Assembly (NCBI GenBank): GCA_964479945.1
Contig: CAYZNS010000002.1
Location: 13,172-77,171, forward strand
From: an uncultured Candidatus Saccharibacteria bacterium
GTDB taxonomy: Bacteria > Patescibacteriota > Minisyncoccia > Ryanbacterales > 2-02-FULL-48-12
Reading direction: 5' to 3'
DNA: 64,000 nucleotides
This document shows, in pieces, positions 1,312 to 52,000 of this stretch. The translations under genes were made by a program, and so were the position numbers. Below the pieces are notes generated by a model. The model did no database searches. It saw only the letters and a list, made by a program, of their open reading frames with translations, and was not told the DNA's origin. The stretch's first letter is position 1. Each line of letters begins with the position of its first letter.

Positions 1312-1340
1312 TTTAGTGCTTCTTGGTGCCGCTTGGTGCG

Positions 1341-4045: not shown

Positions 4046-4078
4046 AAAAAATAAAGCCCGGTAAAGGCTTTATTTTGA
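4046..4078. terminator. rho-independent terminator hairpin (aaagcc-cggtaaa-ggcttt) flanked by A and T runs
   Basis: 6-bp GC-containing stem with a 7-nt loop. The T-run on the minus strand lies right after the stop of the 4102..5823 gene. Confidence 0.55.
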
Positions 4079-4101
4079 AAACAGAGCGCTAGACGGGGTG
4101 A

Positions 4102-10804: not shown

Positions 10805-13651
10805 TTAAAAAGTCCCGGTAGCAATATATGTCAAGGTGGTGGTATAACTACCGGCTTCGGTGGGGGCTGCGATATTGGCAATATATGAAATAGTGCAGGT
10901 CGTATCGTTGATTGAACCGCTCGAACTTACGATTGTCTCTCCTGACACGAATTTAAAGTTGTCAACGGTGCTGTAGCCGGTCGCGGCGGCAGCGACTGGT
11001 GAAGTGCCAGAACATTCCGCACCCACATTCGGTGTCGCATTATCTTTCGCGTTGATTCCGAACTGCTCTGTGCCGACAGAACTTGCGGCGGCGGTTGACA
11101 TGGCGGTAATGGTATTGCCGCTCGAGGTTAGTGTAGAACCAGAGTAGGTAACAACTACTCCATTGGCGGCATTCGTCCCGACGGTGATGGTATGAGAACC
11201 AGTGCTCACGGCGCTGCTTGACAATGTTCCAAGATTTATAGAATTTGCCCCTAAGCTGAAAGTAAGGGTTGGCCCGGCACCTCCGCCAGCGAGTGTAACT
11301 TGCGCGATAACATCGGCAGAGTTCAAAGCCGTGCCGGCGTTCGTCACCCTGAAACAATACACGCCGCCGTCCGTAGCGTTTGTATTTGCCTGAAAAACAT
11401 ACTCCACTTCGGTATATTGGTTTTGAGCCAAGGTAATCGCGCCTGATTGGTTAGATGTGCTTTCTACCTGATCGCCGGCCACGAAAGTATATGCTTCGGC
11501 ATTTGTAAGCTGAGCAGTAGTCGGATCGCCATCAACATAAAAACTGCTGCCGCTCAAAGTCATATCAAAATGTTCGGTAGTCGCCGTATCAGGAACCGCA
11601 GCATAACTCTCTCCACTGTATGCAGTGTCGCAGGTGCCACTCTGCGCCGCCCACTCCAAACGATAATTGTAAGCGGAAGCGCTGCCGCCGGTATTGTCCA
11701 CTTGAAAACGGAGTCGGATATTGGTGCTTTTGGCAAGGCCAGTGTGCACCGCATCCTCCGTCTGCGCCCAAGTTGCAGCAGGAACGGTGTAGGTTACCAA
11801 AACATATAAAGTTGAAATTTCTGCTTTGTTGCCGCTTCCCGTAAGCACCAATTCCATAGCATTCATCCGCGTCGTGTTGATGCTCAAGCCGGTAAATTGT
11901 TGTGTTTTTGTCTGGTCGGCCCCAGTAATAGCTTGGGCTGACCCCATCGAATCCGTGACGCCACATTCAACCGCATCACTGGCTATATTTATGCAATATC
12001 CTAAAGTGATGCTTGAATTCGGATTTCCGACATCATCTGCCCCGGCAACCGTGATATCAAGCTGAGTTACCGTCACGCCTGCCGGAAGAGCGTCATTAGC
12101 AAGCGTATAATAATCCGTCGCGGCGGCAAGTAAAAGTTGAGAGGTTTCCAGATCACTTGTCGGTGCGGTTGCCGAAGTATCCGCAGTGTCATCATCCACG
12201 CAATCCCATTCGCTTCCAGCAGTACATCCGCTAACGATGCTGAAACCCACCGCGCCAAAGCCATTGCCGGTCGGATTGAAATAAAGCGTTTGGTTTGTGT
12301 CTCCTTCTGGGCCGTTATCATTTCTCCAACGATAGTGGTCTTGAAACACATTTGGCAGAAGATTAAGGGTTGTCGCGCCGGAAATAGCCACAGCGGTGGC
12401 CGGACTCACCACTCCCGCTGAAACTGTCACCTCCGTGGATGGGTCGGTAATTTCAATCTCAAAAGTATCGGCATTAGGCGCACCGGACGCAACATTTAAT
12501 TGAACATAAACGCATATTTGGGAAGTGCCGACTACCATTGCGCTGTCGCCCGTTATCGCGGCTTTTTCCGAAGCGTTAAAACCAACGCCTGTGGCGTTAA
12601 AAGCTGTGGCGTCGCCGGGGATGGAAGCGGAACAACTTGCCTCTGTTTTGTAATATAATTTTACATTGGAAAGGTAGGTCTGAGCGACAAGCGAGGCATC
12701 CGTTTCGCTGATAGTTATGGCGGTAACATTTGCCGTGCCCTCATTTCTGACAAATGTAAAGGCACCTCCCACATACTGGTTAGTTGAAGGAATGTTCATA
12801 TTGGCGGTTTGGGTGCCGGTTGTCCCGACCGTAATCGTTGAAGGAGCGGGTTTGAGCGCCAAGGAAATCGCCCCTTTATATGTAGTGTTTGCCATTGTCA
12901 CAGCCGTTGTTGTGTATGACCCGGCACTTGCTTTCTCGCCCGTTGCCAAACAATGTCCTCCTCCTAGACCTTGTGTGCTGGAGTTATCCGTTCTTTCCTG
13001 TATATTTGCCAGATCCGCGTTCGTCCAGCCGGAACATTCGGTTGTGCTATTAGCGTTCCTGCTTGTCGAAGTTATAAGGACAATCAAGGCGTCGGCTACC
13101 GATGTTGTTGCGCCGGGGATAGTGCCACTCGTGTCATTGGCCGCGCTGTCGTTTCCGCCTGCACCCGTGTCCCACGGATCACCGGAGGTTATTACTCCAG
13201 TAAAACAATGTATCTGACCTTCTGTGTTATTGATAGAATCCGCGACTACCGGCGCGGAGTCGCCGCCGACAGTGCGCTTCCAATACAATGCCAACATGGA
13301 AGCCGGATCCGTAGCAGCCGTGCCGGCACCTTGCGGAGACCATGTAGGAACTTCAACAAACCCATTTGCTGTGGTCAGTGTAATCGCTTGGTTTTCCGAT
13401 GACACAGCCAGCAGACAGACATCGTTAGCTGCCATGTCCGCGGGATATGGCGGTGTTATCGCACCGGTTCCTGCCGTAAAAGTGCCGGAATTCCGATATC
13501 CTGGCAACGCCGCCAGCGCTTTCTGAATCCCCGGCGGAAAATTAAAAATTTGAGGAAATCCCGAAAAAATCCAAGAGAAAACTAAAACTGTTACCAGAAA
13601 GAATCTGGAAATTTTCAAAACCACGCTTTTTGGAGGCAAAAACTCTTTCAT
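10805..13651 (-). CDS. large Thr/Ser/Ala-rich secreted surface protein with shared C-terminal domain (CscC-like)
   Basis: 948 aa with a signal peptide. Low-complexity beta-rich body. C-terminal ~150 aa homologous to the 9308..10363 product. Confidence 0.5.
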   Translation of the reverse strand: MKEFLPPKSVVLKISRFFLVTVLVFSWIFSGFPQIFNFPPGIQKALAALPGYRNSGTFTAGTGAITPPYPADMAANDVCLLAVSSENQAITLTTANGFVEVPTWSPQGAGTAATDPASMLALYWKRTVGGDSAPVVADSINNTEGQIHCFTGVITSGDPWDTGAGGNDSAANDTSGTIPGATTSVADALIVLITSTSRNANSTTECSGWTNADLANIQERTDNSSTQGLGGGHCLATGEKASAGSYTTTAVTMANTTYKGAISLALKPAPSTITVGTTGTQTANMNIPSTNQYVGGAFTFVRNEGTANVTAITISETDASLVAQTYLSNVKLYYKTEASCSASIPGDATAFNATGVGFNASEKAAITGDSAMVVGTSQICVYVQLNVASGAPNADTFEIEITDPSTEVTVSAGVVSPATAVAISGATTLNLLPNVFQDHYRWRNDNGPEGDTNQTLYFNPTGNGFGAVGFSIVSGCTAGSEWDCVDDDTADTSATAPTSDLETSQLLLAAATDYYTLANDALPAGVTVTQLDITVAGADDVGNPNSSITLGYCINIASDAVECGVTDSMGSAQAITGADQTKTQQFTGLSINTTRMNAMELVLTGSGNKAEISTLYVLVTYTVPAATWAQTEDAVHTGLAKSTNIRLRFQVDNTGGSASAYNYRLEWAAQSGTCDTAYSGESYAAVPDTATTEHFDMTLSGSSFYVDGDPTTAQLTNAEAYTFVAGDQVESTSNQSGAITLAQNQYTEVEYVFQANTNATDGGVYCFRVTNAGTALNSADVIAQVTLAGGGAGPTLTFSLGANSINLGTLSSSAVSTGSHTITVGTNAANGVVVTYSGSTLTSSGNTITAMSTAAASSVGTEQFGINAKDNATPNVGAECSGTSPVAAAATGYSTVDNFKFVSGETIVSSSGSINDTTCTISYIANIAAPTEAGSYTTTLTYIATGTF

Positions 13652-13716
13652 TACCTATATTATACTTCTTATACGAAAATTATTGAAGTTGAGGGAATAA
13701 AAGGTCGTCTTTTTTG

Positions 13717-14151
13717 TCAAAAATCGTCCATAATTCTCAAAACCTCATCGGGATAATTTGGATTGATTATTCCATTGTAATTCCACAACCTCTCGTAGGT
13801 TGTTTTGTTTTTGTAGTAGTCAGCGGTTCTCGGATTGAATCCGCAAAGGTTCGCGCCAACGATTTCAATCGCTTTTTCGACACTCTCAAAATCCGCTCGG
13901 CATGAAGCCCAGCCGAACGGATTATTACCGCACGCTTGTTTTCCGCCGGATGATTCCCGAACCGCAATTGCCGGCAATAATCGCCAGTCCATATCGCACC
14001 GATCAGCGGCTTCCACAAATTCGGTGCCATACCCAGCGAGTGGCATGTCTCGCTCGGCAAAGTAGCGGTCTATTCTCGCCATTCGTTCGTCAGGTATCAC
14101 ACAGGTCGGCTTGGTCTCGAATCGTTCGCCACAGGGGCAACCACGGGGCAA
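13717..14151 (-). CDS. Rpf/transglycosylase-like domain protein
   Basis: AVRESSGGKQACGNNPFGWAS resembles the transglycosylase-like (CESGG...W) motif. The true start may be the internal MARIDRY. Confidence 0.4.
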   Translation of the reverse strand: MPRGCPCGERFETKPTCVIPDERMARIDRYFAERDMPLAGYGTEFVEAADRCDMDWRLLPAIAVRESSGGKQACGNNPFGWASCRADFESVEKAIEIVGANLCGFNPRTADYYKNKTTYERLWNYNGIINPNYPDEVLRIMDDF

Positions 14152-14161
14152 CCCGCTAATA

Positions 14162-14186
14162 CAAAACCGCCTTTCGGCGGGTTTTG
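14162..14186. terminator. rho-independent terminator aaaaccgcc-tttc-ggcgggtttt
   Basis: Perfect 8-bp stem with flanking A and T runs. Lies downstream of the hsdS stop on the minus strand. Confidence 0.6.
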
Positions 14187-14360
14187 CATCGCAACGAGCA
14201 TTATTCTCTTTATACCATGACTTTGGGGCGTCCCCTTCTCAAGGGTTCAAACTTCAACGAGCCTAAAACCATTTGAAACTTAAGCCCCTCATTCGTGTAC
14301 ATTGCTACAAAGACTTTAAGTTTATTGCGAATTTTTGCCATATGTATTTCGATATGATAC

Positions 14361-14380
14361 CCCTTTTTAGCCGTTCTGTA
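14361..14380. repeat. direct repeat DR-L (ccctttttagccgttctgta), a remnant copy of the rnhB 3' end
   Basis: 20/20 identical to 21595..21614. Read on the minus strand it encodes ...IQNG*, compared with ...VQNG* for the intact rnhB end. Confidence 0.7.
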
Positions 14381-14436
14381 TATCCCGCGCGCATATTTGT
14401 CCGTAAAATAGGCAATTTTTTGCCATTCTACTACTC

Positions 14437-14982
14437 CTATATTTCCTCCAAAACCTGATCGATTTTTCCCTCCATAAGCTCAATTAAGCGGCGGTTGGCG
14501 GTGATGATTTCTTCTTCTTTTTCCGCTTCGGCGGCGAGCTGTTTTTGGATTTCAATTGGCGGAAAAGGGATTTGCAAGTTTTTTACGAACGATAGATTTG
14601 CCATTTTGTATTTGTTATCGCTACCGACAAACCGGTCATGCAGCATACCAAGCGCATAAAATAAAAATTTTGAATCTAAATCCTTTTCATTTATTGGCGA
14701 TAGAGATGCAATGTTCTGATTTGTGCAAAAGTCAAAAGTTACATATCCAGTTTTTCCAATAGTTGCTCCGACAAGAGCAACTATTGCCGTGTTTGCATGA
14801 ATCAACTTTGCCGATGAATTATTTAGACCTTTTTTCGATATGTATGTTTTGGGGTTAGTAATTATCAAATCTTTACATACTTCTGATTTCAACCAAGGTA
14901 CTTCTGGTGGTTCATAGTATTCTTTTATTTTTGTGTCCGGGGTACCACCTGATTTTACTTCGCAAACTTTCCCCAATTCCAC
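14437..14982 (-). CDS. hsdS: type I restriction-modification specificity subunit, half-size (single TRD)
   Basis: 181 aa. TRD-like N-terminal region plus the conserved IPFPPIEIQKQL segment and a coiled C-terminus. Confidence 0.7.
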   Translation of the reverse strand: MELGKVCEVKSGGTPDTKIKEYYEPPEVPWLKSEVCKDLIITNPKTYISKKGLNNSSAKLIHANTAIVALVGATIGKTGYVTFDFCTNQNIASLSPINEKDLDSKFLFYALGMLHDRFVGSDNKYKMANLSFVKNLQIPFPPIEIQKQLAAEAEKEEEIITANRRLIELMEGKIDQVLEEI

Positions 14983-15004
14983 CCACTCAACATCTTTTAA
15001 TTTT

Positions 15005-16915
15005 CTAAGCGACTGGCCAAAATAGCGTCTCTCTCTCTAGATTTTTGATAATTTCTTTGGCGTGCTTGATGGAATTTTCCTTCGCCTCAATTTGCTCCAC
15101 GATTTCATTTTGCACGTCTAAAGGCGGGAGTGGGATTTTGATTTCATAAAAATGATCAATGTTCAGATTCTTTTGCGCACCGCCACGGGCACACATAAAA
15201 ATTTCTTCCTGCCGCTGCAATAAAATTTTCCCAACAAAATCCTTGCTCAACTTATCTTGATATTCGGATTTAACTGAAAAAGTTCCGCCGGAATCCATAA
15301 GCCAAAATTTTTCAGGCACATATCGCACACAGTGCTCTGCCATGGCAAATCGAGCAATTAAGTAGTCATTTTCTCGATTAAATTTGTCTGTTCTAAAACT
15401 TTCTCCACCGCCGCCATAGACAGGATATTTTGTACCGCGATTTCCATGTTTTGTGATTCTTTCTCCAAAATTTAGCTTGATCAGTTTCCCCAATTCAATC
15501 ATTGGCCACTTTTCATTTTTTACAGCAGCAACGTCTCTGTATCTTTCGCTGGTTAAACTGTATTCACCGCTTTCAGCAATTTTTTCTTTTTTAACCCAAA
15601 GCGCAAGAGTACTTTCTCCCGCCTGCGCCGAAGCTTCGACGGGCAGGTGTTTTTTGCCATTCTTCCACGCGTCTAAAATCGCCAATGTTTCCGGCAGATC
15701 GTTTTTATCAATCTTCCGTCTTTGCGCGCCGAGATCAAAGCCGTCGTTTTCTACCTTTACAAACAAAATCTCATCGCTCTTTTTGGCAAGCTGATTATCA
15801 AAAAAGAGAATACTTGTTTTTACATTCCCTTTGCCGCCGGGTTTGGCAAACACGCCTTGCGGCAAGGAGACGACGGCATACAAGCCATCTTCAACTAACT
15901 TTTTCCGTAATTCTTTATATGCCGAATCATTCCTAAAAATCACTCCTTCCGGCACGATTATACCCGCCCGTCCCTTGATGTTGAGGTGCTCCAAAATATA
16001 ATCAACAAACAACACCTCACTGCGCGTGGCTTGCACGGAAAAACGCTTGTGGGGGCGAATACCGCCCTTTGGCGTCATAAACGGCGGATTGGCGAGGATT
16101 ACGTCAAAGGTATCGTCCCAGCGATCCTCATACGTCAACGTGTCGTACTCGTATATTTTCGGATTGGGGAAATGGTGCAAGTACATATTCACGATGGCGA
16201 TCCGCATCATTCCCGGATCAATGTCGTAACCGACAAAATTACTCATCATTTTTTGCTTTTCTTCCGGTGAAAGGCGTTTTTCCGCGCTCGTCGGCTCGCC
16301 CGATGGGTCTTTGCCGTCGTGCTGGCGTAAAATGTGTTTGTACGCGGAAATCAAAAATCCGGCCGTGCCGCAAGCGGGGTTCAAAATTGTTTCGTTTTTC
16401 TTCGGCGCGACAACTTCAACGATAAAATCAATAATATGGCGCGGCGTGCGAAATTGTCCGGCTTCTCCCGAAGTGCCTATAACATTCAGCAGATATTCAT
16501 AGGCGTCGCCCAAGTCCTCACTGTGGTCAAAAATAAATCCGTCAATTTCTTTCAAAAATAAATTTAATGTTTGAGCGTCGTTATATGGCAATGCCGCACT
16601 CTTAAAAATATCCCTAAAAAGTTGCGGGATGTGTGAATTTTTGGACATATTCGTGATGGCTTGCACATACAGATCAAGCCGCTCGGCTCCAGAAAGCCGT
16701 TTATCCAAAAGTTTGGTCCAGCTGTATTTGGCAAAATCCTCCACAAAATATTGCGCTTTCAACCCGACTCCTTCATTTTCTTTATCCATATCGTCCATAA
16801 ACTTGTAAATCAGCGCAATCGTAATCTGATCAACCTGTAATTGTGGGTTTGGAATTCTCCCAACAAGAATATCGCGCGCCGAGTCAATTTTTCGTTTTGT
16901 GATTTGGTCAAGCAT
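15005..16915 (-). CDS. hsdM: type I R-M N6-adenine DNA methyltransferase fused to a C-terminal target-recognition domain
   Basis: HsdM N-terminal domain, then the MTase core (ILNPACGTAGFLISAY ... ILANPPF). The C-terminal ~200 aa are HsdS-like (TRD plus IPLPPLDVQNEIVEQIE). Confidence 0.8.
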   Translation of the reverse strand: MLDQITKRKIDSARDILVGRIPNPQLQVDQITIALIYKFMDDMDKENEGVGLKAQYFVEDFAKYSWTKLLDKRLSGAERLDLYVQAITNMSKNSHIPQLFRDIFKSAALPYNDAQTLNLFLKEIDGFIFDHSEDLGDAYEYLLNVIGTSGEAGQFRTPRHIIDFIVEVVAPKKNETILNPACGTAGFLISAYKHILRQHDGKDPSGEPTSAEKRLSPEEKQKMMSNFVGYDIDPGMMRIAIVNMYLHHFPNPKIYEYDTLTYEDRWDDTFDVILANPPFMTPKGGIRPHKRFSVQATRSEVLFVDYILEHLNIKGRAGIIVPEGVIFRNDSAYKELRKKLVEDGLYAVVSLPQGVFAKPGGKGNVKTSILFFDNQLAKKSDEILFVKVENDGFDLGAQRRKIDKNDLPETLAILDAWKNGKKHLPVEASAQAGESTLALWVKKEKIAESGEYSLTSERYRDVAAVKNEKWPMIELGKLIKLNFGERITKHGNRGTKYPVYGGGGESFRTDKFNRENDYLIARFAMAEHCVRYVPEKFWLMDSGGTFSVKSEYQDKLSKDFVGKILLQRQEEIFMCARGGAQKNLNIDHFYEIKIPLPPLDVQNEIVEQIEAKENSIKHAKEIIKNLERETLFWPVA

Positions 16916-16917
16916 GG

Positions 16918-17913
16918 TTATTTTTTCTTGATGGACTTTGATAGTTTTTTCACTTCCCTGTCAAAATCAGAAATGTGCTTTTTGTCTTGCTTTTTTTTAT
17001 ATTTGGAAAATTCACTTTCCGCTTTTTCATTCGCTTTTTCCGCGCTCACCTTGCCCGCGTTCAGCAAAAGTTTTTTCTCGCTTAATTTTAGAAATTCATC
17101 AAGCTTTACCGCCCATTCGGCCATTTTCATCGGGCGTTCGTTGGTTGCTTGAAGTTCGGCAAAGTCCAAATACAAGGACACAATAAGGTTAAGTTGCTTG
17201 AGTTCTTTTTCAGAAAGATAATTTTTGGCAATTTTTGCGTCTCCGGCAGTAATATAGTTCCCCTTAAAATTTGAGAGTCCCATCATCGGTTTTTTGCTGT
17301 CGGCGCGCAAAGATACTATTTCCGCGGCGGTATATCCGTGCACGGCATAGTGCATTTTGTTTTGTACGGTAGCAAAAAACTTTTTTGTAAGCTCATCGTC
17401 TTTCCGATAGTCAATGCTGGTTGCGTAAATGTCCGTAACTTTTTGATAAAAATTACGCTCGCTACTGCGAATATCGCGGACGCGCTGGAGCAATTCTTCA
17501 AAGTACCGCGCTCGCTCTCCGCCTTGCTTCATCCGCTCATCGTCCAATGCAAAACCCTTAATAATATAATCACGAAGCCGCGCCGTCGCCCAAATACGGA
17601 ATTGAGTAGCTCGTTTTGAATTAACGCGGTAACCCAAAGCAATAATAACGTCCAAATTATAATGTTTTGCATCATATTTTTTCCCATCGTCGGCAGTTAT
17701 TAAGAAATTCTTAATAACTGATTTTTCGCCCAATTCGCCTGTTTCGAAGATATTTTTAAGATGTTGATTGATTGCGGATGTGGTAACCTCGAACAACTCC
17801 GCCATTAATTTTTGAGTAAGCCAAACAGTTTCATCTTGAAAATAAACATTAACCTTTGCTTGGCCGTCTTCGCTTTGATAAATGACGATCTGTGATTGTT
17901 GATTTTTTTTCAT
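16918..17913 (-). CDS. RhuM-family protein embedded in the R-M operon
   Basis: 331 aa. The N-terminal region IVIYQSEDGQAKVNVYFQDETVWLTQKLMAELFEV matches the RhuM family that commonly sits between hsdR and hsdM (recalled from memory). Lys-rich tail. Confidence 0.55.
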   Translation of the reverse strand: MKKNQQSQIVIYQSEDGQAKVNVYFQDETVWLTQKLMAELFEVTTSAINQHLKNIFETGELGEKSVIKNFLITADDGKKYDAKHYNLDVIIALGYRVNSKRATQFRIWATARLRDYIIKGFALDDERMKQGGERARYFEELLQRVRDIRSSERNFYQKVTDIYATSIDYRKDDELTKKFFATVQNKMHYAVHGYTAAEIVSLRADSKKPMMGLSNFKGNYITAGDAKIAKNYLSEKELKQLNLIVSLYLDFAELQATNERPMKMAEWAVKLDEFLKLSEKKLLLNAGKVSAEKANEKAESEFSKYKKKQDKKHISDFDREVKKLSKSIKKK

Positions 17914-17917
17914 AGTC

Positions 17918-19516
17918 TTATTTCATGTATTGATTAACCGGCACATAATCTTTTACATATTCCGGCACTTTATTGCGCCAGCCATTTAATGATTGATATT
18001 CTTCCATGGTAAAAGCACCATAATCACGTGGGAACCTACCAGCATTAATTTCTTGCCTGAATCGCTCATCCCCAACATATACTTTAAGAAAATTTCGGAT
18101 ATGCGGCACATATTTATTTTCCGGCTTGTAGATTGAAATAAATTTCTCAACCTCGTCTTCCAATTTTTCGTCTTTAGATTTGAAAGCGTCAATCAAGCCG
18201 AATACGCGCTCCAGAAATTCGCGCCATGATAAACGGCGGTCAAGATTTTCGCTTTTGCGAATTTTTTCAAGGTTAAGGAAAAGCTCCGGCTTATCTTCGT
18301 ATTTGTCGCGCAGAATTTTTACGGCTTTTTCCCATTGTTCCTGATCCACCGCCTGTTTAACTTCTTCGTCATTTTGGATTTTCTTTCTCGCTTCTTCAAA
18401 TAATTTGCGATCAACCTTCATACCCTCCAATCCGATCGCATATTCTTTGATGATTTTTTCCTTGTCCGGCTCAAAAATCGTAATCTCATCAATATCAACA
18501 GGGCCGGGGCCATCTCCACCAGAACCGCCCTTTTTTATCGGCAATTTTATGGCTTCGTCATAATCAAACTTCTCTTCAAAGTATTCAAAGTTGGCGAAGA
18601 AATCGAAAAACTTGAATTTGTCTTTGATGACTTTTCGCACTTCGCCGTCCTCGTCCTTATATTCAAACGTATATTTTCGAGTGCCGCGGCCTTTCATCTG
18701 CACAAAATCTGTCGGCGAAAAAACAGGACGAAGCAAGGCGAGGTTCAAAATATCTTCGCAGTCATAGCCAGTCGTCATCATACCGACGGTAACGCAGATC
18801 CTTGTTTTACTTGATTTGTAGCCGGGCAGAAATTTTGTGTGGCCGCCCAAGGTATTGTTGGCGAAATTGATCGTCATTTGCGGGGAGCCCTGAATGTTTG
18901 AGGTGATTTGAACGGCAAAATCAGAACTGTATTTGTCTGGCCATACTTGATGAGCTTGTCTGTTTAAGGTTTGCGTAATCTTGGAAGCGTGTTTTTGGCT
19001 GACGCAGAAAATAAGCGTCTTGCCCATCTCGCCGCTTATCGGATCTTTCAAGGCATTTTCAATAATGGATTTGCAGAACACCTGATTTGTTTTGTCGGAA
19101 AAGAATTTTTTCTCAAAGTCGCGCTGGAAAAAAGTTTCTTCGGTTTCTTCGCCTTCTTCATTTTCAACCATTACCGCATAGCCCTTTTCCGAAAGAAGCT
19201 CCGTGGTAATGTCGGTACGCGCGTCAACGGCAACAGGATTGATGAGGTAGCCGTCTTTTACGCCATCAAGCAAGGTATATCTGAACGTCGGCTCGCCGCT
19301 CGGACAGCCAAAAGTCGTGTAGGTATCCAATAGTTGCCTGCGTTCCCACGCGCGCGGATCATTTGCTGAGAGTTTTTGAGAATCAACATTTTTTAGATAA
19401 TCTTTCGGCGTTGCAGTAAGTCCGAGTTTATATCCGACAAAGTATTCAAAGACGGCGCGCCTGTTCTTTGCCGTCGAGCGGGTCTTTCTCCTCTTTCTTT
19501 GCTTCCAAAACGACAA
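17918..19516 (-). pseudogene. hsdR: hsdR C-terminal fragment (helicase motifs III-VI and C-terminal domain)
   Basis: Begins at LGLTATPKDY (helicase motif III) and contains QMKGRGTR (motif VI). It lacks the nuclease core and helicase motifs I-II. Confidence 0.65.
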
Positions 19517-24385: not shown

Positions 24386-24469
24386 GCCGAAGTGGCGGAA
24401 TTGGCAGACGCGCTAGCTTCAGGAGCTAGTATCCGCAAGGATGTGAGGGTTCGAATCCCTCCTTCGGCA
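24386..24469 (+). tRNA. tRNA-Leu(CAG), class II with long variable arm
   Basis: Manual cloverleaf: acceptor gccgaag/cttcggc, D-arm gcg-gaattggcaga-cgc, anticodon arm ctagc-ttCAGga-gctag, 15-nt variable arm, T-arm gaggg-ttcgaat-ccctc, discriminator A. CCA is not encoded. Confidence 0.85.
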
Positions 24470-29468: not shown

Positions 29469-29796
29469 TGTTTTTTTCTTCAGTTATATTGCTATGCTTT
29501 TTTCGTGCCACCGGTTTTCGCGTTCGACCTCTCACCTTTTCCCCCAGAGTGAATAAAACGCTTAAAAATCCCAGCGCATGTTTAAATTTTATGCTTTCTT
29601 CTTTTACAAAGGAACGCGCATCCGCGATATCGCCGCGCAGCGTGTACAATTCCTGTTCCACCACTTCTGAAATACTGCGAAGTATCCGCAACAAACGCAC
29701 GAAATGGTACAGCGCCAAGATAACGGCGCCCGCAACACATACGGCGGCAATTGCCGTTATAAAAAAGAATACATTGGACTGCAAAACTTCACTCAT
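29455..29796 (-). CDS. DUF948/YtxG-like membrane protein
   Basis: 113 aa. N-terminal TM helix then a coiled-coil. Confidence 0.45.
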   Translation of the reverse strand: MSEVLQSNVFFFITAIAAVCVAGAVILALYHFVRLLRILRSISEVVEQELYTLRGDIADARSFVKEESIKFKHALGFLSVLFTLGEKVRGRTRKPVARKKHSNITEEKNNGEQ

Positions 29797-30686
29797 ATTT
29801 TTACTATATCACGTACCAAATGGTCCGCCACTGTTGATAACACTCTGCGCGGCAGCGCGTCGGCTGAAATATCCTGCGCGCCCAGATCAATCGGGTGGTT
29901 CGCATAATCAACCACGAAATAGTCCTCTCTGTTCGTAAACACTATCTCTGCGCTGAATACGTCAAATCCCGTTATGCTATATATTGCCAGGAGTGTTTTT
30001 TCCAACACCGTCGCCGCTGCATTCTCTTCCGGCACATGTCTCAATTCTTCATAAAAATGATTAACCGGATTCCACCGCAATGGAATAATGGCGCCGCACA
30101 CATACAGGGGCCGGAACCATCCCGCGCGTCCGGCAATTACGGCAGGCGTTAAGAACTCCTGCATCAGCGCGGCATCGTTGCCATTCCCCTCCATGAACTT
30201 TGTAACATCTTCCTTGCGCGATGCTGTCATCAAAACATCATTCTCCATGCCTCCGTATGCGGGTTTTATGACGAACGGAACAGTAAATTCCTTGAGCGCG
30301 CGAGGAGCCTCCCGTTTTGCCTCACTAAGCGAATAGACTATGCGCGTTTTGGGTACCGGAATGCCCGCGGACGCGAAAGCCTTGTGAAGCGCTATCTTGC
30401 TTCCCCACCGCGCGGCTTGCGTTGGATTGTTTACCACGCGCACGCCGCGCTCGGCCAACATCCACGCGATCTGCGCATAGGGCGGATAATCTATGGAGGA
30501 GCGATCCAAGTACCAGCGATACGCAACGCTGCCATTTCTAATTTCTTCAAACCGTTCGCTGATATTCTGATAGGTGATCTCGTCAACAGAAAGCTTGGCG
30601 CTTCGCAACTCTTTTTTCAGGAGTGATACAAAAACTGCGTCTATCGGACTCGCCCACCCGATACCAACGTCATATATCTTTGTCAT
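29793..30686 (-). CDS. ATP-grasp domain protein (RimK/glutathione-synthetase-like)
   Basis: Start set at MTKIYDVGIGW (ATG at 30686). ATP-grasp-like core FVIKPAYGGMENDV. Confidence 0.5.
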   Translation of the reverse strand: MTKIYDVGIGWASPIDAVFVSLLKKELRSAKLSVDEITYQNISERFEEIRNGSVAYRWYLDRSSIDYPPYAQIAWMLAERGVRVVNNPTQAARWGSKIALHKAFASAGIPVPKTRIVYSLSEAKREAPRALKEFTVPFVIKPAYGGMENDVLMTASRKEDVTKFMEGNGNDAALMQEFLTPAVIAGRAGWFRPLYVCGAIIPLRWNPVNHFYEELRHVPEENAAATVLEKTLLAIYSITGFDVFSAEIVFTNREDYFVVDYANHPIDLGAQDISADALPRRVLSTVADHLVRDIVKI

Positions 30687-30848
30687 ACATAAACTATAAG
30701 ACTTTTCACACCTTATTCCCATATTACGAACAGTGTCCGAGTTGTGCATAACCCAATCCCCCACTATACTATCCCTATGGCAAATCCTCCACCGCAACAA
30801 TCGTCCGGGTCCGTTTCTCTGCACCCCGCCTCATTTGCAGGGGTACGC

Positions 30849-33455
30849 ATGCCGCCGCAAAACGTGGAAGCCGAAATGTCCGTTTTAGGATCGCTCATGC
30901 TAGACAAAGACGCATTCAATAAAACCGCCGATATCTTAAAACCGGCTTGTTTTTATCGTGACCAGCATCGGGTTATTTATGAGGCAATGCAGGAATTATT
31001 TGAAAAGCGCGTGCCGATTGACGTGCTTTCCACATCCAACCGGCTCCGTGAAAAAAAGAAATTGGAAGAAACCGGCGGGGTCAGTTACTTAACGCAGCTC
31101 GTGAATATGGTGCCAACTGCGAGCAATGTTGCGCATTATGCCGATATCGTAAACCGCAAATACGTGCTGCGAAGCATTATCTCCATATCGCAGGACATAA
31201 GCCAATTGGGCTATCAGGAATCCGACGACGTAGATATATTGCTGGACGAGGCAGAGCGAAAAATTTTTAGCATCTCGCACGGCTCGCTCCGCCAGCGGTT
31301 CGCCCCCGTTTCCGAAGCGCTGGAAGCCGCATGGGATCGCATAGACAATCTTCAAAAAGGCGAGCATCTGCGTGGCGTCCCCACAGGCTTTACTCAGCTG
31401 GACAATCTTCTCTCCGGACTCCAAAAATCGGATATGATTGTCCTTGCCGCGCGGCCTTCTTTCGGTAAAACGAGTCTCGCACTTGATATAGCGCGTAAAG
31501 CGGCCGTCAAGGAAAACACGCCAGTCGGCATATTTAGCCTGGAGATGTCCACCGAACAGGTTATTGACCGCCTTCTTGCGGCAGAAGCCAATGTGGATTC
31601 ATGGCGGCTCCGCACGGGCCGGCTTTCCCATGATTCCGATGATTTTCTACGCATCCGCGAAGCGCTGGACCGCCTTTCCAAAGCGCCAATTTTCATAGAC
31701 GACGAGCCATCCAATAACATTCTTCAAATGCGCGCGATGGCCCGGCGGCTGCAAACCGAACACGGGCTGGGGCTTATTATCGTGGACTATCTGCAACTTA
31801 TTACCTACCACAAAGGAACCTCCGACAGCTTGGTACGCGAAGTTACGGAAATCTCCCGCGCATTGAAAGGCCTCGCGCGCGAACTCGAAGTGCCTGTGCT
31901 CGCCATCTCCCAGCTTTCGCGCGCCGTAGAGCAGCGCCATCCGCCGATACCGAAATTGTCGGATTTGCGGGAATCCGGATGTCTTACGGGAGATACTCTC
32001 CTGACCAATGCCGATACGGGGAAACGCACCCCGATCAAAGAACTGGTCGGTAAAACAAATATTCCGATATTTTCATTTACCGCGGACCATAAAATAGAAC
32101 GACGCCTTATTTCCAACGTATTTCCAAACGGGAATAAAAAAATATATCAAATCACAACGAGAAGCGGGCGCACCATAAAAGCGTCAGAGAATCATCCATT
32201 TTTTACCATACACGGTTGGCGCGCTCTTAAAACATTGACTGCAGGCATGCATGTTGCCGTCCCGCGCCACATAGCACCAATGCATTCCGTTTCTGTAATG
32301 TCTGATTCGGAACTTACCCTGCTTGCTCATCTTATCGGAGACGGATGTATTCTTCCTCGCCAACCCTTCCATTACACCAGCGCAGATGAATATAATATTG
32401 CCGTTGTAAGCGCATCAGCAAACAAACTTTTTGGCATACAGCCGCGCACGATCCGCCAAAAAAATTGGTATCATATATATCTGCCATCGCCCTATCGTCT
32501 GACACGCAATAAAAGACATCCAATATCAAATTGGTATAAAAAGATGGGGCTTCCTTTATCAAGATCATATGAAAAAACTCTCCCGGATTCTCTATTCCAA
32601 TGCGGTAATAAGAAAATTCAACTCTTCCTCCATCATCTTTGGGCAACAGACGGAAATATATCTTATAAAAATATTCCTGCCAGGAAAACTGCAGGGTCAA
32701 TATATTATGCTACTTCAAGCACTGTTCTCGCAGAACAAGTACAACATCTTCTCTTGCGTCTTGGTATTTTTAGCACTCTGCGGACAATCCCGCATAAAAA
32801 ATACCGGCCTATGTATCATGTATACATAGAAGGCAGTGTCATGCAAATCCGTTTCTGTGAACTCATAGGATCATATGGAAAGCGAGGCAGTATCGTTCCC
32901 GAACTTCTCAAAAAACTGAAATTAATCAATCCAAATACGAATACGGATATCATACCACGCGAAGCATGGCGTATCCTTATTGAACCGATAAAAGAATCTT
33001 TACAGATAAGTTGGCGGGATTTCGCAAAAAAAATTGACATGGCGTACTGCGGAAGCGCTCTCTTTAAAAACGGGTTGTCTCGTAATAGAATGCTACGCGT
33101 AGCAGAGGCTTTTAGTAGCGAACCATTATGTAAAATAGCACAGTCGGATATTTATTGGGATAAAATAGAATCTATTATCTCTCTTGGAGAAGAAGAAGTT
33201 TTTGATGCGACGGTGCCCGAAACCCATAATTTTATCGCAAATGATATTGTTGTCCATAACAGTATTGAACAAGATGCGGATGTCGTCATGTTCCTTTATC
33301 GGGAGGATAGATACAAAGACGACTCCGCGCAAAAAAACGTAACGGAAGTCCAGATTGCAAAACACCGCAATGGCCCCTTGGGCAAAGTAAGCTTATATTT
33401 TAATCCGAATACTATCTCGTTCTCCGATATCGACAGGCGGGTTGAGGAAGTGTAA
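30849..33455 (+). CDS. dnaB: replicative DNA helicase DnaB interrupted by an intein
   Basis: Start at MPPQNVEAEMSVLGSLM. Walker A ARPSFGKTSLAL and the H4 motif SDLRESG|SIEQDAD are split by the intein. Extein ~476 aa. Confidence 0.85.
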   Translation: MPPQNVEAEMSVLGSLMLDKDAFNKTADILKPACFYRDQHRVIYEAMQELFEKRVPIDVLSTSNRLREKKKLEETGGVSYLTQLVNMVPTASNVAHYADIVNRKYVLRSIISISQDISQLGYQESDDVDILLDEAERKIFSISHGSLRQRFAPVSEALEAAWDRIDNLQKGEHLRGVPTGFTQLDNLLSGLQKSDMIVLAARPSFGKTSLALDIARKAAVKENTPVGIFSLEMSTEQVIDRLLAAEANVDSWRLRTGRLSHDSDDFLRIREALDRLSKAPIFIDDEPSNNILQMRAMARRLQTEHGLGLIIVDYLQLITYHKGTSDSLVREVTEISRALKGLARELEVPVLAISQLSRAVEQRHPPIPKLSDLRESGCLTGDTLLTNADTGKRTPIKELVGKTNIPIFSFTADHKIERRLISNVFPNGNKKIYQITTRSGRTIKASENHPFFTIHGWRALKTLTAGMHVAVPRHIAPMHSVSVMSDSELTLLAHLIGDGCILPRQPFHYTSADEYNIAVVSASANKLFGIQPRTIRQKNWYHIYLPSPYRLTRNKRHPISNWYKKMGLPLSRSYEKTLPDSLFQCGNKKIQLFLHHLWATDGNISYKNIPARKTAGSIYYATSSTVLAEQVQHLLLRLGIFSTLRTIPHKKYRPMYHVYIEGSVMQIRFCELIGSYGKRGSIVPELLKKLKLINPNTNTDIIPREAWRILIEPIKESLQISWRDFAKKIDMAYCGSALFKNGLSRNRMLRVAEAFSSEPLCKIAQSDIYWDKIESIISLGEEEVFDATVPETHNFIANDIVVHNSIEQDADVVMFLYREDRYKDDSAQKNVTEVQIAKHRNGPLGKVSLYFNPNTISFSDIDRRVEEV
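31980..33260 (+). other. DnaB intein (427 aa) with LAGLIDADG homing-endonuclease domain, inserted at the DnaB-b site
   Basis: Begins at Cys (CLTGDTLLT) and ends VVHN followed by Ser. Block B TIKASENHPFFT. LAGLIDADG-like motifs LLAHLIGDGCI and LHHLWATDGNI. Confidence 0.8.
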
Positions 33456-34114: not shown

Positions 34115-34172
34115 CTGCTGTCAAACACTAAGTGTCTGACAAGCTTGTCAGACACTTAGTGTTTGACAGCAG
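34115..34172. terminator. perfect 58-bp palindrome (29-bp arms) between convergent recR and rplU; overlaps the last 17 nt of rplU
   Basis: Every position was checked manually: position i pairs with 34287-i across 34115-34172. It contains two copies of the TGTCAAACACT half-site motif. The right arm encodes TAVKH* of L21. Confidence 0.7.
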
Positions 34173-34542: not shown

Positions 34543-35139
34543 TTAGAGGCCTTTAGACATAACACTCGTGGAAGGAGGAGATGATGGCGGAGGTGGTGGT
34601 GGAATAGTCTCTTCCGGCAGCAGCCAATCAATGCCGGCATCAGAAACGAAAAGTCTGATGCCAACTTCCCATGCAAAAAGCTCTCTGCCAGTTGAGTCCT
34701 TCACATATAAGTCAAACTTATAGCCGCCACCAAAACCACAAGTCTCCCCGGTTGTGGTAGCGCCGCCATAATCGGCAATCAACACAAAATGATTGCCCTC
34801 ACCACACGCGCCGGTCACTAGCGGACAAGCGTATCCACACACAGGTTGCCACAAGCAAACACGCTCATCATCCCCTCTTCCCAAAATCAGCTCCTCATCC
34901 ACCACAAAGATTTGGGGATCAACGAATGACATCCCTAAGTCATTACTCAACGTGTCGCCCAAAACCCGAAATGTTCCGCCCGGGGGACAATAAAATTTCC
35001 AGGCATCCCCGTTACGCTGCCCCCGTTCATTTCTCCCTACGTTGGGCAAGTCGTTTTGCCGGCGCACGCGCTCGCCGAAAGACAAGCCGGGGATAGTAAC
35101 TATAAGAGAAATAAACAAAGCCGAACAAATCCATCTCAT
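34543..35139 (-). CDS. secreted Cys-rich hypothetical protein with Pro-rich C-terminus
   Basis: Signal peptide MRWICSALFISLIVTIPGLSFG. Multiple Cys. PPPPPPSSPPSTS tail. Confidence 0.35.
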   Translation of the reverse strand: MRWICSALFISLIVTIPGLSFGERVRRQNDLPNVGRNERGQRNGDAWKFYCPPGGTFRVLGDTLSNDLGMSFVDPQIFVVDEELILGRGDDERVCLWQPVCGYACPLVTGACGEGNHFVLIADYGGATTTGETCGFGGGYKFDLYVKDSTGRELFAWEVGIRLFVSDAGIDWLLPEETIPPPPPPSSPPSTSVMSKGL

Positions 35140-46081: not shown

Positions 46082-49000
46082 TTATGGATTTACCAAAAAC
46101 GTGGTGGGGTTCTCTGTCATGGTAAGATAATTAACACGCGCGCGATTAGCATAATCAATCCCCAGATAACTATAATATGCCCCGACGCGATAGAGTTTGG
46201 CAGGATCAAGAATAGGACCATCATACGCTTTTGAACCAGTCTGACTGCTGATAGGAACCGAAACAGTGCTTCGATATACCTGGGTTCTGCTTACTTCTTC
46301 ATGAACATGAATCGAGTAACCGGCTGTAATGGTGCTTGCCCAGTGAGCGGGCCATCCGCTTTGCGGCACGGTCCACTGAATGGTAAACGGCTGCAGGACC
46401 GGCGAGAACGCGGAGGTTGGACTTATAATACGCGTAGAAGATAATGCATGCTGATGCAGCATATCGGAAATAATGGTTTCAATGCCTGTGGAATCAACTA
46501 CCGCCACATAATAACTATATTCCCCGATGGGAACAGTATTGCCATAGTCAAATATGCGCGATGTTGCGGTCCATGCTTCATAATCTGTCCTGCAGGAAAA
46601 CCCGAGCGACCAATTTAGATCAGTGGTAACGCTCGTTCCGCACGCGGTACTGGCAAGTGGAAATGATCCACTCAACGCAAATTGAGTTTCTCCCGGTTTT
46701 TTCTCATAGAGCCGAATAGCGCGCACATCAGTAAATTTTGTTCTATCAAACCCGAAGCGAACAGACCGCACAAAGCGATGTGAATCGTACTGACTCCCTC
46801 CCCAATATCCGCCTTGATCTGATTTGACTTCTATACTCAATACTTTTGTAGCACTCGCTCCCGCGCTGTCGGTAACACCCGCGGTAAATGTATAGGTCCC
46901 GGGTACCACCAATGGCCATTGTGAAATCTGGCCGGTTGCAGCAAGTTTAAGCCCATTGGGGAAATTGCCTCCCACAATCTGCCATTGATAGGGCGCAACG
47001 CCTCCGGTTGCCGAAAGCGCTACACTACGCAGGGATCCATCTTGATTAACTCCAAAATAAGATATACCCCACGCGCCAGCTGGTAAATTAGTAGTTGTAA
47101 TAGAAAGCGTTGATGTGGTCAAAGCCGTAGAATCTATCCAAATAGTGGTTACGACCTCGGGCATTGCGTTATAAGTATCCCAAGCCAATGAGTCTTGATT
47201 CATGATAATACGGCCGGCATCAATGAGCACAATATACTTCTTTGCGGGATCAAGCGCTGGACCATCATAGACAAAGGATCCGGTTATGGATCCGGCGGGC
47301 GCATAATTATACATAAATTTCTGCCAATACACCTGCCGCGTATCGCTATCATAAAGAGCAATGCGATAACTAGGCGCTGTACCTACAGGCCAACCACTCG
47401 TAAGTGTCCATTGAAATGTTATAGGAGAACCGATTGTTTGAGCGCCAGATGGGCTTACAATTTTTACCTTCGGCGTTGCATACTTCTTGATTATTTTTGA
47501 TGAGGCACGCGCAAATCCGGATGGAGGAAGGATTGTTTCATTACCTGAAGAATCAACAGCTGCAACGTAATACTCGTAGGTACCAACCAGGTAGGTTGAT
47601 GAATGAAATTGGCTGGTGCGCCGGGCGGTCCATTGATCCAATGAGCCAAGTGGATCAGAGCGTCCACAGCCAAAATCCAATGCCCAACCGGTGACGCTAA
47701 CAACATTACTGTTACACCTCCATGACACGAGTAGCGAAAAGGTTGCCACAGAGTTAAACGCACTGTCTCCCGGCCGCTTTTCATAAATGCGTAGCGATTG
47801 TACAGTTGGATACGACGAGGTGGCGAAAGTGAAATTGACCCGATCAATAAATGTATCCGGCAGCCATCCATTGTGCCATGTGGCAGAAGCGGGTGCGTAA
47901 CCGACTCTGAAAGGACCGTCACTTGCATCCTTTATAGCTGGATCAGCCGAGTCAGAAATCTCAATCGTAAATCCAGTAAGGTTCTGCATGTTAGCCGGAA
48001 CACTCCAAGTATAGCTGAATGTACCGCTTTCCGCGTTCTGGGGAATTTTGGTTCCCAATGTCGTGAAGAGATTTCCATCCTTAAGTATTTTAATGGCAAC
48101 AGTTTTGGACACTAAACCGCTTGAGGTCCATGAAATAGTAACCATTTCATCAACCATCAAAAGTTCTCCGCTGTTTGGATAGAGTACCATTATGCTGGAT
48201 GCAGGAGCCGACGAAAGAGATGCAACGATCGGAGCCCCCGCAATCTCAATGGCTAACACCCGAGATCCGATGACACTTCTTCCATCAGTGGCCTCCACTG
48301 TGAACTCGGCTACCCCCGCGATGGAAGGCATACCGGAGATAACGCCGCTTGAAGAATCAAGAGCAAGACCTGAAGGCAATGAACCGACTTTCACACTCCA
48401 ACGGAGCGGCGCAACACCATTTACCGCCGTAAGTGCTGCACGGTATTCTTTCCCGACAACACCTGCGGGCAATCGTTCGTGGAAAAAGATATCACCCTTG
48501 AGATTAGAATCGCCAGGAACGAGATTTGAAAATGCTGAAGCAAAGGCCACAAATCGACCATCCGCGCTGATTGCTGGATCCCCGAAGATATGCGCAGCCG
48601 AACCCTGTTGGCCGCTATCAGAAATACTTACGCGGCTTGTCCGTTTTGTCTCCCGGTCATACACAAAAATATCGGGTTGGGAATTGGTATCTCCGACTAT
48701 GAGGTTTGAGGCGTAAGATTCAAAAACCATATAGCGGCCATCAGCACTGATTGTAGTATTTACGCTATGACCATTCCCTTCTCCTCCCATCGAGGAAACA
48801 CTCACCCGAGTCGTGGTCTTAGCAACACGATCGTGGACAAACACATCCCCCACGCCATTAGCATCACCAGAGATAAGATCAGATGCGCTAGAAACAAACG
48901 TGACATAGCGGCCGTCAGAACTTATTGATGGCGCATAAAGAGAGCTTGGCCCTGCGATACCGGTACTCTGGAGGCCACTATTCGTGATACTCACACGCGT

Positions 49001-52000
49001 AGTCTCTTTTGTATCTCGATTATGCACAAACACATCGCCAAGACCATTTGTATCACCGGAAACAAGCCCCGTAGAAAAAGAAAGGAATGCCACAAACTTG
49101 CCATTGGCGCTGATGGCCGGATAAAAACTTGATGCTCCAAATCCCTGACCACCGCTTGAAGAAACGCTCACGCGGGTTGTTGTTCTGGTCTCTCTATCGT
49201 GAATAAAGATATCCTGCTGTAAGTTGGTATCACCCGTAACCAAATTTGATGCATCAGAAGCAAAAACAATATATCGCCCGTCGGCGCTCAAACTCGGCGT
49301 CTGACTCACGCCATTTGACTGACTACCACCGTCGGCTATGCTCACGCGGGTTGTTGTTCTGGTCTCTCTATCGTGAATAAAGATATCCGACATGCCATTG
49401 GTGTCATCTGACACAAGGTTGGTTGCTGTTGAGCTAAAAACTATATATCGCCCGTCAGCGCTTATTACTGGTACATCATCTGTTGCTGGTGATGGACCAT
49501 TTGCCTGTGTGCCGTCATTTGCTACATTCACACGGGTTGTTGTTTTGGTTTCTCGATCATGAATGAAGATATCTGACACGCCATTGGTGTCATCTGATAC
49601 CAAGTTAGTGGCTATTGAGCTAAATACCACATACCGTCCATTACTACTTATAGCGGGGCCGCCGCTACTTATATTGTTTCCCTGCGTGCCATTACTTGAT
49701 ACACTTACGCGGGTCGTGGCAGGCGGTGTGATATAAATTGCGGCGCTTGATACGGTTGGCGCAACTGTGATACTAAAGTTCTCGGTGTCACTCAAACCAT
49801 CCCTATCAGAAACTTTGGCAGTAAAATTGAAAGTGCCAGATGTAGTAGGATTGCCCGAAATGCTTCCCTGGTCATTAACGGTGGTAAGCGCAAGGCCAGC
49901 CGGAAGCGCGCCGGCCGCAATGCTCCAGGCAAACGGCGGCGTTCCGCTTTGCACAGAAATTTTTGCGCTATACAGTGTTCCAACTGTTCCGCCTGGTAAC
50001 TGTGCAAAGACAATTTCAGGAACCGGCTGCGGGGCAGTTGTTGTTTGCGTAGAAACTGGCGCAGGAACCGGTCCGTTGGAAAATACCGCGCCGCGTGCAA
50101 CAGAAAGAACAGCACCTCCTATTTCTACATGGGGAATCAGTTGATTAACAAAACCTCCCCATGCGTAACTCCCCGGGCCGTCAGTAATCAGTGCCCAGTT
50201 GGCGCCGGAGTCGGATGATTTATACAACCCATCGCCTTGGCATGTGGTATAGGTAATCGCGTACATCGCTTCGCTTTCAGCGCTACCCAAAACTCGACCG
50301 TTTTGGAATGAAACTGGCAGCGTTCCTCCCCGAATCCATGTAGAGCCGTGATCCATTGAAGTATATGCAACAAGATGTGTTGATCCCCGTTCTACTGTTC
50401 CGCCAGTGTAGGGATCTTCTGGAATTTTCCCGATAAAGAACAGTTGTCCATCTTTATTTTTAGCAATTCTGTACTGGTGGGGATTGCCGCCCCAGTAAAG
50501 ATACGCGCTGAACGTTTTTGTCAAGGTTCCATTGATCCAGCGATAGATGCCGCGGTACTGCTTTGAATCGCTTACTTGTATATCTTCTGAATCCATAAAT
50601 ACCAGTGCGCCATCGTCCGCCTCCACGATGGATTCTAACCATCTGGAATGCGTGAATAATTTCTGCCACGTTGCCCCGCTATCGGCGCTGCGATATACCT
50701 CGGCAGTGCCATAGAGTGAGAGACCAACGGTGGCGACAAGCACGTTGTCTCGCTGCACAAGAAGATTATTCACTACTACGGAATCGGACGGCGAAAGCGC
50801 AGACGGCGGCTTTTGCACGAATATCCATGTGGCGCCACCGTCATTACTTTTCCAAAGTCGCGAGCCGCCGGCAAATAACACACCATTTTTATCCTCTGCG
50901 AGGGAGCGTATAGAATCATAGGTGCGATTCGGGTCAGATACAACATAGGGGATATTCACCAATGTCCACGTTTTCCCGTTATCAGATGATTTGCCGATAA
51001 CTGGAACTTTCGCGGTTATTGTTCCCGCGCTGTCTTTTACTGATTTCACTCCGCCCGCGATTAACGCGCCGTTTTTAGTTTTGATCATGTCTGCCATGAC
51101 GATATTTTCCAGATTATTTTTTGTTGAATCGCTTGTAGAAAAATTCCATGTTGCCGGATCCCATCCCGTTTCAAAACTTCCTACCCATTGAAAGTCGGGG
51201 GTAGCTGGACACGTAAGGATTGCCGTGGACGATGCTGGCGCAATTGTGATACTAAAGTTCTCGGTGTCACTCAAACCATCCCTATCAGAAACTTTGGCGG
51301 TGAAATTGAAAGTGCCAGCGGTGATAGGATTGCCTGAAATGCTTCCTTGGCCATCAACGGTGGCAAGCGCAAGGCCAGCCGGAAGCGCGCCGGCCGCAAC
51401 ACTCCATGTAAACGGCGGCGTTCCGCTTTGCACAGAGATTTTTGCGCTATATGGTGTGCCAACTGTTCCGCCTGGCAACTGTGCAAAGACAATTTCGGGA
51501 ACAGGATTGTTTGCTACTGAAAACAAAATAGGATAATCATCCGTGTTGACGTTGCCCGCGCTATCCTGACATCGGACATTATATCCAAATCCTGTTGGGT
51601 ACGACGGACTTATCGACATCACCGATACAACCGAGGAATGAGATGTGGAATTCGTATTGGAAAATGTATTTGCCATTTGCTCATAACTTACCCCTGACGC
51701 ATCCGCAGAATATTTACAAGTAGCATTTTCATCAGTATTCAATGATATAGTGACGGATGTCGTGCCTGCGGGAAACGTGCCGGAAGGCGCTTCATTGAAA
51801 CGCACGGGAGGAGTGATATCCGTAGAAGGCGGCAGAACCGATCCGGTTATAGTGGAGGCAGAACCTGAAAACCAGCGAACGTGAACGGCGCTGTTTCCTT
51901 CAAAACAATATTGATATTGTTCTGACTCTGCAAGCGCTGTTTTCGTTTGTCCAAATCCTCGCAGACTGCGAGATTTACTATTTATGCATGCCTGAAAAAC

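Follow-up and report, generated by a model that had tools for sequence, protein, structure and literature searches.

A class-1 intein with an intact-looking LAGLIDADG endonuclease at the H4 site of a Patescibacteria DnaB helicase

The replicative DNA helicase gene dnaB on contig CAYZNS010000002.1, which derives from a member of the Patescibacteria (candidate phyla radiation, CPR), carries 427 additional in-frame codons, and the question is what this insert is, how it reached an essential gene and whether it can still move. The gene lies in a 64,000-nucleotide stretch of the contig, which was analysed as a whole (hereafter the window, to which all coordinates refer). A reading made from the DNA letters alone (hereafter the sequence-only reading) had proposed an intein that is potentially still a homing endonuclease. 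The insert is a canonical class-1 DnaB intein of the H4 site, with complete splicing blocks and an intact-looking LAGLIDADG endonuclease, and we found no evidence that contradicts its identification as an intein. The best overall explanation, to which we assign a probability of about 0.9, is a member of the H4-site allelic family of class-1 DnaB inteins that was probably acquired horizontally.

Anatomy, conservation and predicted fold of the insert

A single long open reading frame (ORF) on the plus strand (30744–33455) encloses the insert in frame, and within it the dnaB precursor gene (30777–33455) encodes 892 amino acids from an ATG at 30777 to a stop codon at 33453–33455. The coordinates and flanks given by the sequence-only reading, 31980–33260 between RESG and SIEQDAD, proved exact to the base on translation. 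The intein spans 427 amino acids from Cys1 (31980–31982) to Asn427 (33258–33260) and reads CLTGDTLL...IVVHN between ...LSDLRESG and SIEQDADVV.... It is preceded by an N-extein of 401 amino acids (30777–31979) ending in ...LSDLRESG and followed by a C-extein of 64 amino acids (33261–33452) that opens with Ser+1 (AGT, 33261–33263) in SIEQDADVVMFLYRED...; these features and those below lie on the plus strand. When the insert was excised in silico, the resulting 465-aa DnaB aligned without gaps to the DnaB helicase of G. stearothermophilus (2r6a, E=6e-129), the segment RESGSIEQDAD being identical in both proteins and the H4 motif intact. Profile searches describe the precursor in the same way. Pfam reports DnaB, DnaB_C in two pieces, Intein_splicing (E=1e-26, 94 bits) and LAGLIDADG_3 (E=1.4e-18, 67 bits), and the generic models TIGR01445 (intein_Nterm, aa 1–76) and TIGR01443 (intein_Cterm) both exceed their cutoffs. 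TIGR00665 scores 531 bits, and the 886-position NCBIfam model NF005852 for replicative DNA helicase aligns end to end at 1035 bits (curated cutoff 780), with the intein corresponding to model positions 398–826. A tblastn search with this intein detected no second intein in the window.

Both halves of the splicing domain are complete, in agreement with the earlier proposal of a full-size intein of the Cys1...HN/Ser+1 type, and blocks A, B, F and G were all recovered on alignment. The N-terminal splicing (HINT) half (31980–32279, aa 1–100) contains block A, CLTGDTLLTNADT, and block B, S69-E-N-H72 (32184–32195), whereas the C-terminal half (33144–33260, aa 389–427) contains block F, EEEVFDATVPETHNFI, with Asp409 and His416, and block G, NDIVVHN, with His426 and Asn427. 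The features required of class-1 inteins, namely Cys1, block B, Asp409 and His416 of block F, His426-Asn427 of block G and Ser+1, were thus found. The Trp-Cys-Thr pattern of class 3 is absent, and since position 4 of block F is Asp, where class-3 inteins have Cys, we assign the intein to class 1. Block B reads S-E-N-H versus the classical T-x-x-H; Ser is the consensus of this intein family at the position, and we counted the block as present.

Between the splicing halves lies an endonuclease core (32292–32870, approximately aa 105–297) that matches Pfam LAGLIDADG_3. The two LAGLIDADG-like motifs that the sequence-only reading had pointed out were both located, the first, LTLLAHLIGDGC, at 32313–32348 (aa 112–123, with Asp121 at 32340–32342) and the second, IQLFLHHLWATDGN, at 32616–32657 (aa 213–226, with Asp224 at 32649–32651). 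A helical region of about 90 amino acids (32880–33143, aa 301–388) separates the core from block F.

A search of the protein collection returned 843 homologues of the intein, the best of them 55–56% identical to it, and a complete intein of 422–438 aa at ..SG/S[IL]EQ (the slash marks the insertion point) was present in 79 of the 120 best homologues, the remainder being broken by contig ends. In an alignment of 76 intein sequences the invariant residues include Cys1, His72, Asp409 and His426-Asn427 of the splicing domain, as well as Gly120-Asp121-Gly122-Cys123 of motif 1 and Thr223-Asp224-Gly225 of motif 2. The two catalytic, metal-binding Asp residues (in LIGD121G and WATD224G), whose conservation had been singled out as worth checking, are therefore kept throughout this set. 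Mean identity to the homologues amounts to 48% in the endonuclease domain versus 42% in the N-terminal splicing half; the helical region averages 38%, with its length kept across the family.

An AlphaFold2 model of the intein, built with the family alignment as input, has a predicted local distance difference test score (pLDDT) of 96.3 and a predicted template modelling score (pTM) of 0.94, and none of its 427 residues falls below a pLDDT of 70. In the model, residues 1–100 and 389–427 build a beta-rich HINT domain, and residues of approximately 105–297 form two alpha-beta-beta-alpha-beta-beta-alpha repeats, each headed by a LAGLIDADG helix, the pseudo-dimeric fold of such endonucleases, here in a predicted rather than a solved structure. 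The first Foldseek matches of the model in the PDB are full-length intein endonucleases, TliVMA (7qss, E=3e-23) followed by PI-PfuI (1dq3), PI-PkoII (2cw7) and PI-SceI (1vde), and further down come DnaB mini-inteins and the free LAGLIDADG enzymes I-DmoI and I-Tsp061I. These four intein endonucleases share the HINT plus double-LAGLIDADG architecture with the window intein at E-values of 3e-23 to 7e-11, template modelling (TM) scores of 0.5–0.69 and 12–20% identity, but they occupy other host proteins and other sites and carry other accessory DNA-binding modules. By analogy, the helical region of the window intein may be an accessory DNA-binding module as well; searched alone (aa 301–388), it gave no Pfam match. 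WhiA (8dy9_I), a LAGLIDADG-plus-helix-turn-helix protein, also occurs in the Foldseek list of the whole model.

The start of dnaB is ambiguous, the candidates being GTG 30744 (the mechanical start of the ORF), ATG 30777 (the choice of gene callers) and ATG 30849. Counted in the 892-aa form, homology to DnaB sets in around residue 23, near ATG 30849, and some close dnaB orthologues are annotated at 432 aa. In an exact-protein look-up the form starting at GTG 30744 had no match, and the form starting at ATG 30777 is on record. An upstream minus-strand ORF (29793–30824) overlaps the candidate starts GTG 30744 and ATG 30777.

The H4 insertion site and known DnaB inteins

The insertion point RESG/SIEQDAD falls in helicase motif H4, about 180 residues downstream of the P-loop. 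The sequence-only reading had labelled it DnaB-b, and this is the one part of its description that has to be corrected. A 2015 survey of DnaB inteins by Novikova et al. (PMC4760082) puts site b in the P-loop and the other two sites, a and c, in motif H4, at a distance of two residues from each other. DnaB inteins of the P-loop (GKT/S) are described as typically class-3 minis that lack an endonuclease (PMC4760082, PMC6195587, PMC5050341), and the class-3 DnaB mini-inteins are assigned to site b by Kelley et al. (PMC6195587), with which PMC5050341 agrees. Site b was accordingly rejected for the window intein: the P-loop GKTS (31464–31475, within ARPSFGKTSLA) is uninterrupted in the N-extein, and the intein sits in H4, belongs to class 1 and bears an endonuclease domain.

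The remaining letters are a and c, of which a is most likely, since RESG/S is the site of the DnaB inteins that were described first (Ssp and others). The same RESG/S site is used by an intein in a Kaiserbacteria metagenome-assembled genome and by inteins on viral contigs. Two further viral contigs of IMG/VR (L094 and L096, match 3001–4266) have inteins 41% and 34% identical to that of the window but placed two residues upstream, at RE/SG. With homologues at both RESG/S and RE/SG, the family occupies both H4 positions, the published a and c.

Among characterized DnaB inteins, the mini-inteins of Npu (4o1r) and Ssp (1mi8, 6frg) match both splicing halves of the window intein (E=4e-35 to 3e-33), bearing out the expected affiliation to DnaB inteins. 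Their alignment covers aa 2–99, with aa 388–427 aligning to the Npu C-terminal half, and the Foldseek alignment to the Ssp mini-intein 1mi8 shows 43% identity over 96 columns. The solved Npu and Ssp forms are engineered minis without the approximately 290 central residues that the window intein retains, so its endonuclease and helical regions have no solved homologue within the DnaB intein family; natural Ssp and Npu DnaB inteins do carry a LAGLIDADG endonuclease. The native Ssp DnaB intein is 429 aa long, with the same RESG/SIEQD junction and the same class-1 Cys1...HN/Ser+1 chemistry. The Ssp and Npu inteins differ from that of the window in their cyanobacterial hosts, as opposed to a patescibacterial one, and in block B, where they have Thr in place of Ser69.

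The M. tuberculosis DnaBi and M. smegmatis DnaBi2 inteins are likewise class-1, endonuclease-containing inteins with Ser+1 at site a in H4 (PMC6195587). Their likeness to the window intein in class, endonuclease, Ser+1 and H4 loop is drawn from that published description. Actinobacterial homologues at RESG/S[IL]EQ are approximately 42% identical to the window intein.

Empty sites, composition and a probable horizontal origin

The extein relatives of the window DnaB belong to Patescibacteria/Parcubacteria, consistent with the small-genome lineage that had been presumed. Each of the 120 best extein homologues is shorter than 600 aa, and the H4 motif is contiguous in 117 of them. Intein-less forms, for which the sequence-only reading had suggested looking among relatives, are found in the closest orthologues listed: P0121–P0124, which are 86–88% identical to the window protein, and P0126 ('Parcubacteria group bacterium Gr01-1014_29'), which is 82% identical. 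They have the dnaB-recR-rplU order of the window and an empty site. The DNA of close orthologues aligns with the spliced window gene at 75–77% nucleotide identity right across the junction and contains no remnant of intein DNA. The empty site reconstituted for the window gene is CCGAAATTGTCGGATTTGCGGGAATCCGGA/AGTATTGAACAAGATGCGGATGTCGTCATG. Across 61 intein-less relatives the H4 target peptide is invariant and the first and second codon positions are conserved, so these codons would offer a durable homing target.

The intein also differs from its host gene in composition. In the N-extein the GC content at third codon positions (GC3) is 0.579; it drops to 0.356 over the intein and returns to 0.531 over the C-extein, and a sliding 30-codon profile falls from about 0.6 to 0.3–0.4 at the intein start and rises again at its end. 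Of the 200-codon windows in the remaining long ORFs of the 64-kb stretch, only 2.8% are as low in GC3. Such a gap is not general to the family, since the two other intein-bearing alleles compared at the DNA level have inteins near the GC3 of their hosts (0.646 vs 0.71 in the Kaiserbacteria allele, L084, and 0.653 vs 0.68 in L090). A signal of the same kind has been discussed for the allelic Rma DnaB intein of Rhodothermus marinus, for which Liu and Hu reportedly argued recent homing in 1997 from high intein similarity together with a codon usage that differs from the host gene's. That argument had high intein similarity to draw on, while the window intein has no comparably close donor.

Intein and extein histories appear uncoupled as well. 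Over the 44 homologues whose extein part spans 150 aa or more, the identities of intein and extein to those of the window are uncorrelated (Spearman 0.16, p=0.31). Inteins 52–53% identical to that of the window occur within exteins only 40–50% identical, and one patescibacterial extein at 56% bears an intein at 43%. DnaB-like genes on predicted viral contigs (IMG/VR) carry inteins of the family, with identities to the window intein of up to 44%. The cultured-phage collection yielded no close relative, its matches reaching at most 28% identity and lying mostly in terminase and helicase genes of Bacillus and Staphylococcus phages; consequently, no phage vector can be named.

Judged from these sequence comparisons, a fairly recent horizontal acquisition is suggested by the atypical GC3 and by the lack of the intein in close relatives, and the data support a mobile element gained by this lineage after its split from the 88%-identical relatives, from a donor of lower GC content. 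The earlier suggestion that the intein marks horizontal flow fits both the empty orthologues and the composition.

Four observations weigh against this account or temper it. The first concerns block B, where Ser replaces the classical Thr, although the change is conservative and family-wide. Secondly, 7.7% of the 1281-nt windows in the 64-kb stretch are equally low in GC; because such other low-GC stretches exist, composition alone is suggestive and does not prove recent transfer. The longest of them, at 1011–3861 and 13481–18011, stay below 0.43 in 1281-nt windows, with a minimum of 0.37. Thirdly, the nearest intein is only 55–56% identical, so that no donor can be named. Finally, the intein is present on every contig recovered for this organism, in all four samples, and no conspecific allele without it turned up, so that continued homing is hypothetical.

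The scope of the searches bears on this last point. The protein homology matches lack even the window's own 892-aa protein, and near-identical alleles were thus not judged absent. An exact 30-mer scan of the metagenome_contigs collection matched neither the empty-site junction nor the intein-bearing control, the collection being one without this organism. Among 80 species-representative loci, the Kaiserbacteria genome L084 was the only one with an intein (54% identical to that of the window, at RESG/S), a ratio that we did not use as a frequency, since the genome_contigs scan ranked loci by contiguous match and was biased against intein-bearing alleles.

One variable codon lies next to the junction. 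Ser at position −2 of RESG (31974–31976) is encoded by TCC in the window versus AGC in the closest intein-less loci (L086, L087 and L089), and distant relatives mostly have TCN. The TCC codon may be a short trace of co-conversion from the intein donor, in a sample too small to say.

Predicted splicing and homing, and what they would mean for the host lineage

The anatomy, the excision and the empty orthologue sites are observed, and established intein chemistry supplies the splicing steps. Translation of dnaB would yield an 892-aa precursor, in which Cys1 would undergo an N–S acyl shift to a thioester and the N-extein would pass to the hydroxyl of Ser+1. Cyclization of Asn427, aided by His426, would then release the intein, and an O–N shift would complete the 465-aa helicase. 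Because the H4 loop is split in the precursor, splicing is presumably needed for helicase function. The freed intein would cut an empty site of about 20–30 bp across the RESG/SIEQ codons of intein-less dnaB alleles, and recombinational repair of the cut allele would copy the intein into it by gene conversion.

Whether the second half of this cycle still operates depends on the endonuclease. The earlier claim that the intein is potentially still a homing endonuclease stands in so far as the double-motif domain is intact and its predicted fold matches solved intein endonucleases. The invariant catalytic Asp residues and the conservation of the domain make it somewhat probable that the freed intein is active. 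The strongest competing explanation is a splicing-competent resident with an inactive endonuclease, inherited vertically and persisting only because an imprecise deletion from this essential helicase gene would be lethal. We consider this possible but clearly the less likely of the two. The endonuclease is inactive in many full-size inteins, its activity cannot be deduced from the sequence by itself, and the fact that every recovered dnaB copy of this organism contains the intein, with no empty allele of the same species seen, fits such a resident. Yet both catalytic Asp residues and their surrounding motifs have stayed invariant in 76 diverged members, and the endonuclease domain is conserved as much as the splicing domain and is predicted to fold with high confidence. 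Mobility in the not-too-distant past is implied, moreover, by a GC3 foreign to the host gene and by close relatives that lack the intein.

A further possibility, which we regard as improbable, is that the intein has been co-opted as a redox- or metal-sensitive conditional switch on DnaB, like mycobacterial DnaBi1. Conditional splicing of DnaB inteins has indeed been published (PMC6195587, PMC7360933), and in addition to its Cys nucleophile the window intein has five more cysteines (123, 208, 293, 357 and 384), of which Cys123 is invariant. The published redox switch, however, is a class-3 intein of the P-loop; splicing of DnaBi2, which sits at the H4 site, is almost instantaneous (PMC6195587). 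Cys123 lies in a LAGLIDADG motif distant from the splicing centre, the sporadic distribution of the intein fits a selfish element, and this analysis produced no positive evidence for a switch.

An artefact, whether a chimeric assembly or an insertion that does not splice, for instance a Hint or bacterial intein-like (BIL) domain, is only a general possibility for metagenome-derived sequence and is effectively refuted here. The reading frame runs through without a break, the site is one known for inteins, and neither the +1 nucleophile nor any of the four splicing blocks is missing. The curated cutoff of NF005852 is exceeded by an alignment that spans the intein. Four independent samples, moreover, yielded the window DNA in separate assemblies, with 100% or 99.99% identity (five loci, two of them on one contig), a recurrence that an assembly error would not produce.

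An H4-site intein, probably acquired horizontally, is the explanation we retain. A more specific version of it, in which the intein arrived recently from a lower-GC donor (another CPR bacterium, the host cell that bears these episymbionts or a phage) and is still mobile, and in which the helical module of aa 300–388 is perhaps an undescribed target-recognition domain, is offered as a tentative proposal that we would not favour as a whole.

Some other features of the window were recorded alongside the intein. Downstream of dnaB, a perfect 58-bp palindrome (GTCTGCTGTCAAACACTAAGTGTCTGACAAGC/TTGTCAGACACTTAGTGTTTGACAGCAG, 34115–34172) lies between the convergent genes recR (stop 34113) and rplU (stop 34156–34158), overlapping the final rplU codons; its form suggests a long hairpin that terminates transcription in both directions. 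A minus-strand ORF of 198 aa (34543–35139) has a Pro/Ser-rich C-terminus and no Pfam match, and on the other side of dnaB a divergent neighbour of 296 aa (29793–30683, minus strand) shows a weak match to RimK-like ATP-grasp proteins (E=1e-4). The 2285-aa ORF at 46082–52939 (minus strand) encodes a giant surface-type protein, of a kind frequent in CPR genomes, with He_PIG Ig-like, PD40, peptidoglycan-binding, sortilin-like and PKD-like domains. The only RNA gene detected within the window is tRNA-Leu(CAG) at 24386–24469 (plus strand).

In kind, the intein is nothing new. It belongs to a large and well-known DnaB family that includes members from Synechocystis and Nostoc, and automated annotation would already name the protein correctly, given that the curated NCBIfam model for intein-bearing DnaB is passed. 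The 2015 survey counts ten host clades of DnaB inteins, CPR/Patescibacteria not being among those it names (PMC4760082). The window intein extends the known range of the family to Patescibacteria, as do many other patescibacterial matches. An essential helicase that depends on splicing could be a point of regulation, although nothing here demonstrates such regulation. Present in this organism, absent from orthologues of 82–88% identity and sharply foreign in its codons, the intein is usable as a presence/absence marker and is modest evidence that DNA has moved horizontally into a CPR genome. Should it indeed be a recent mobile arrival, it would document DNA entering a lineage whose routes of gene flow are poorly known.

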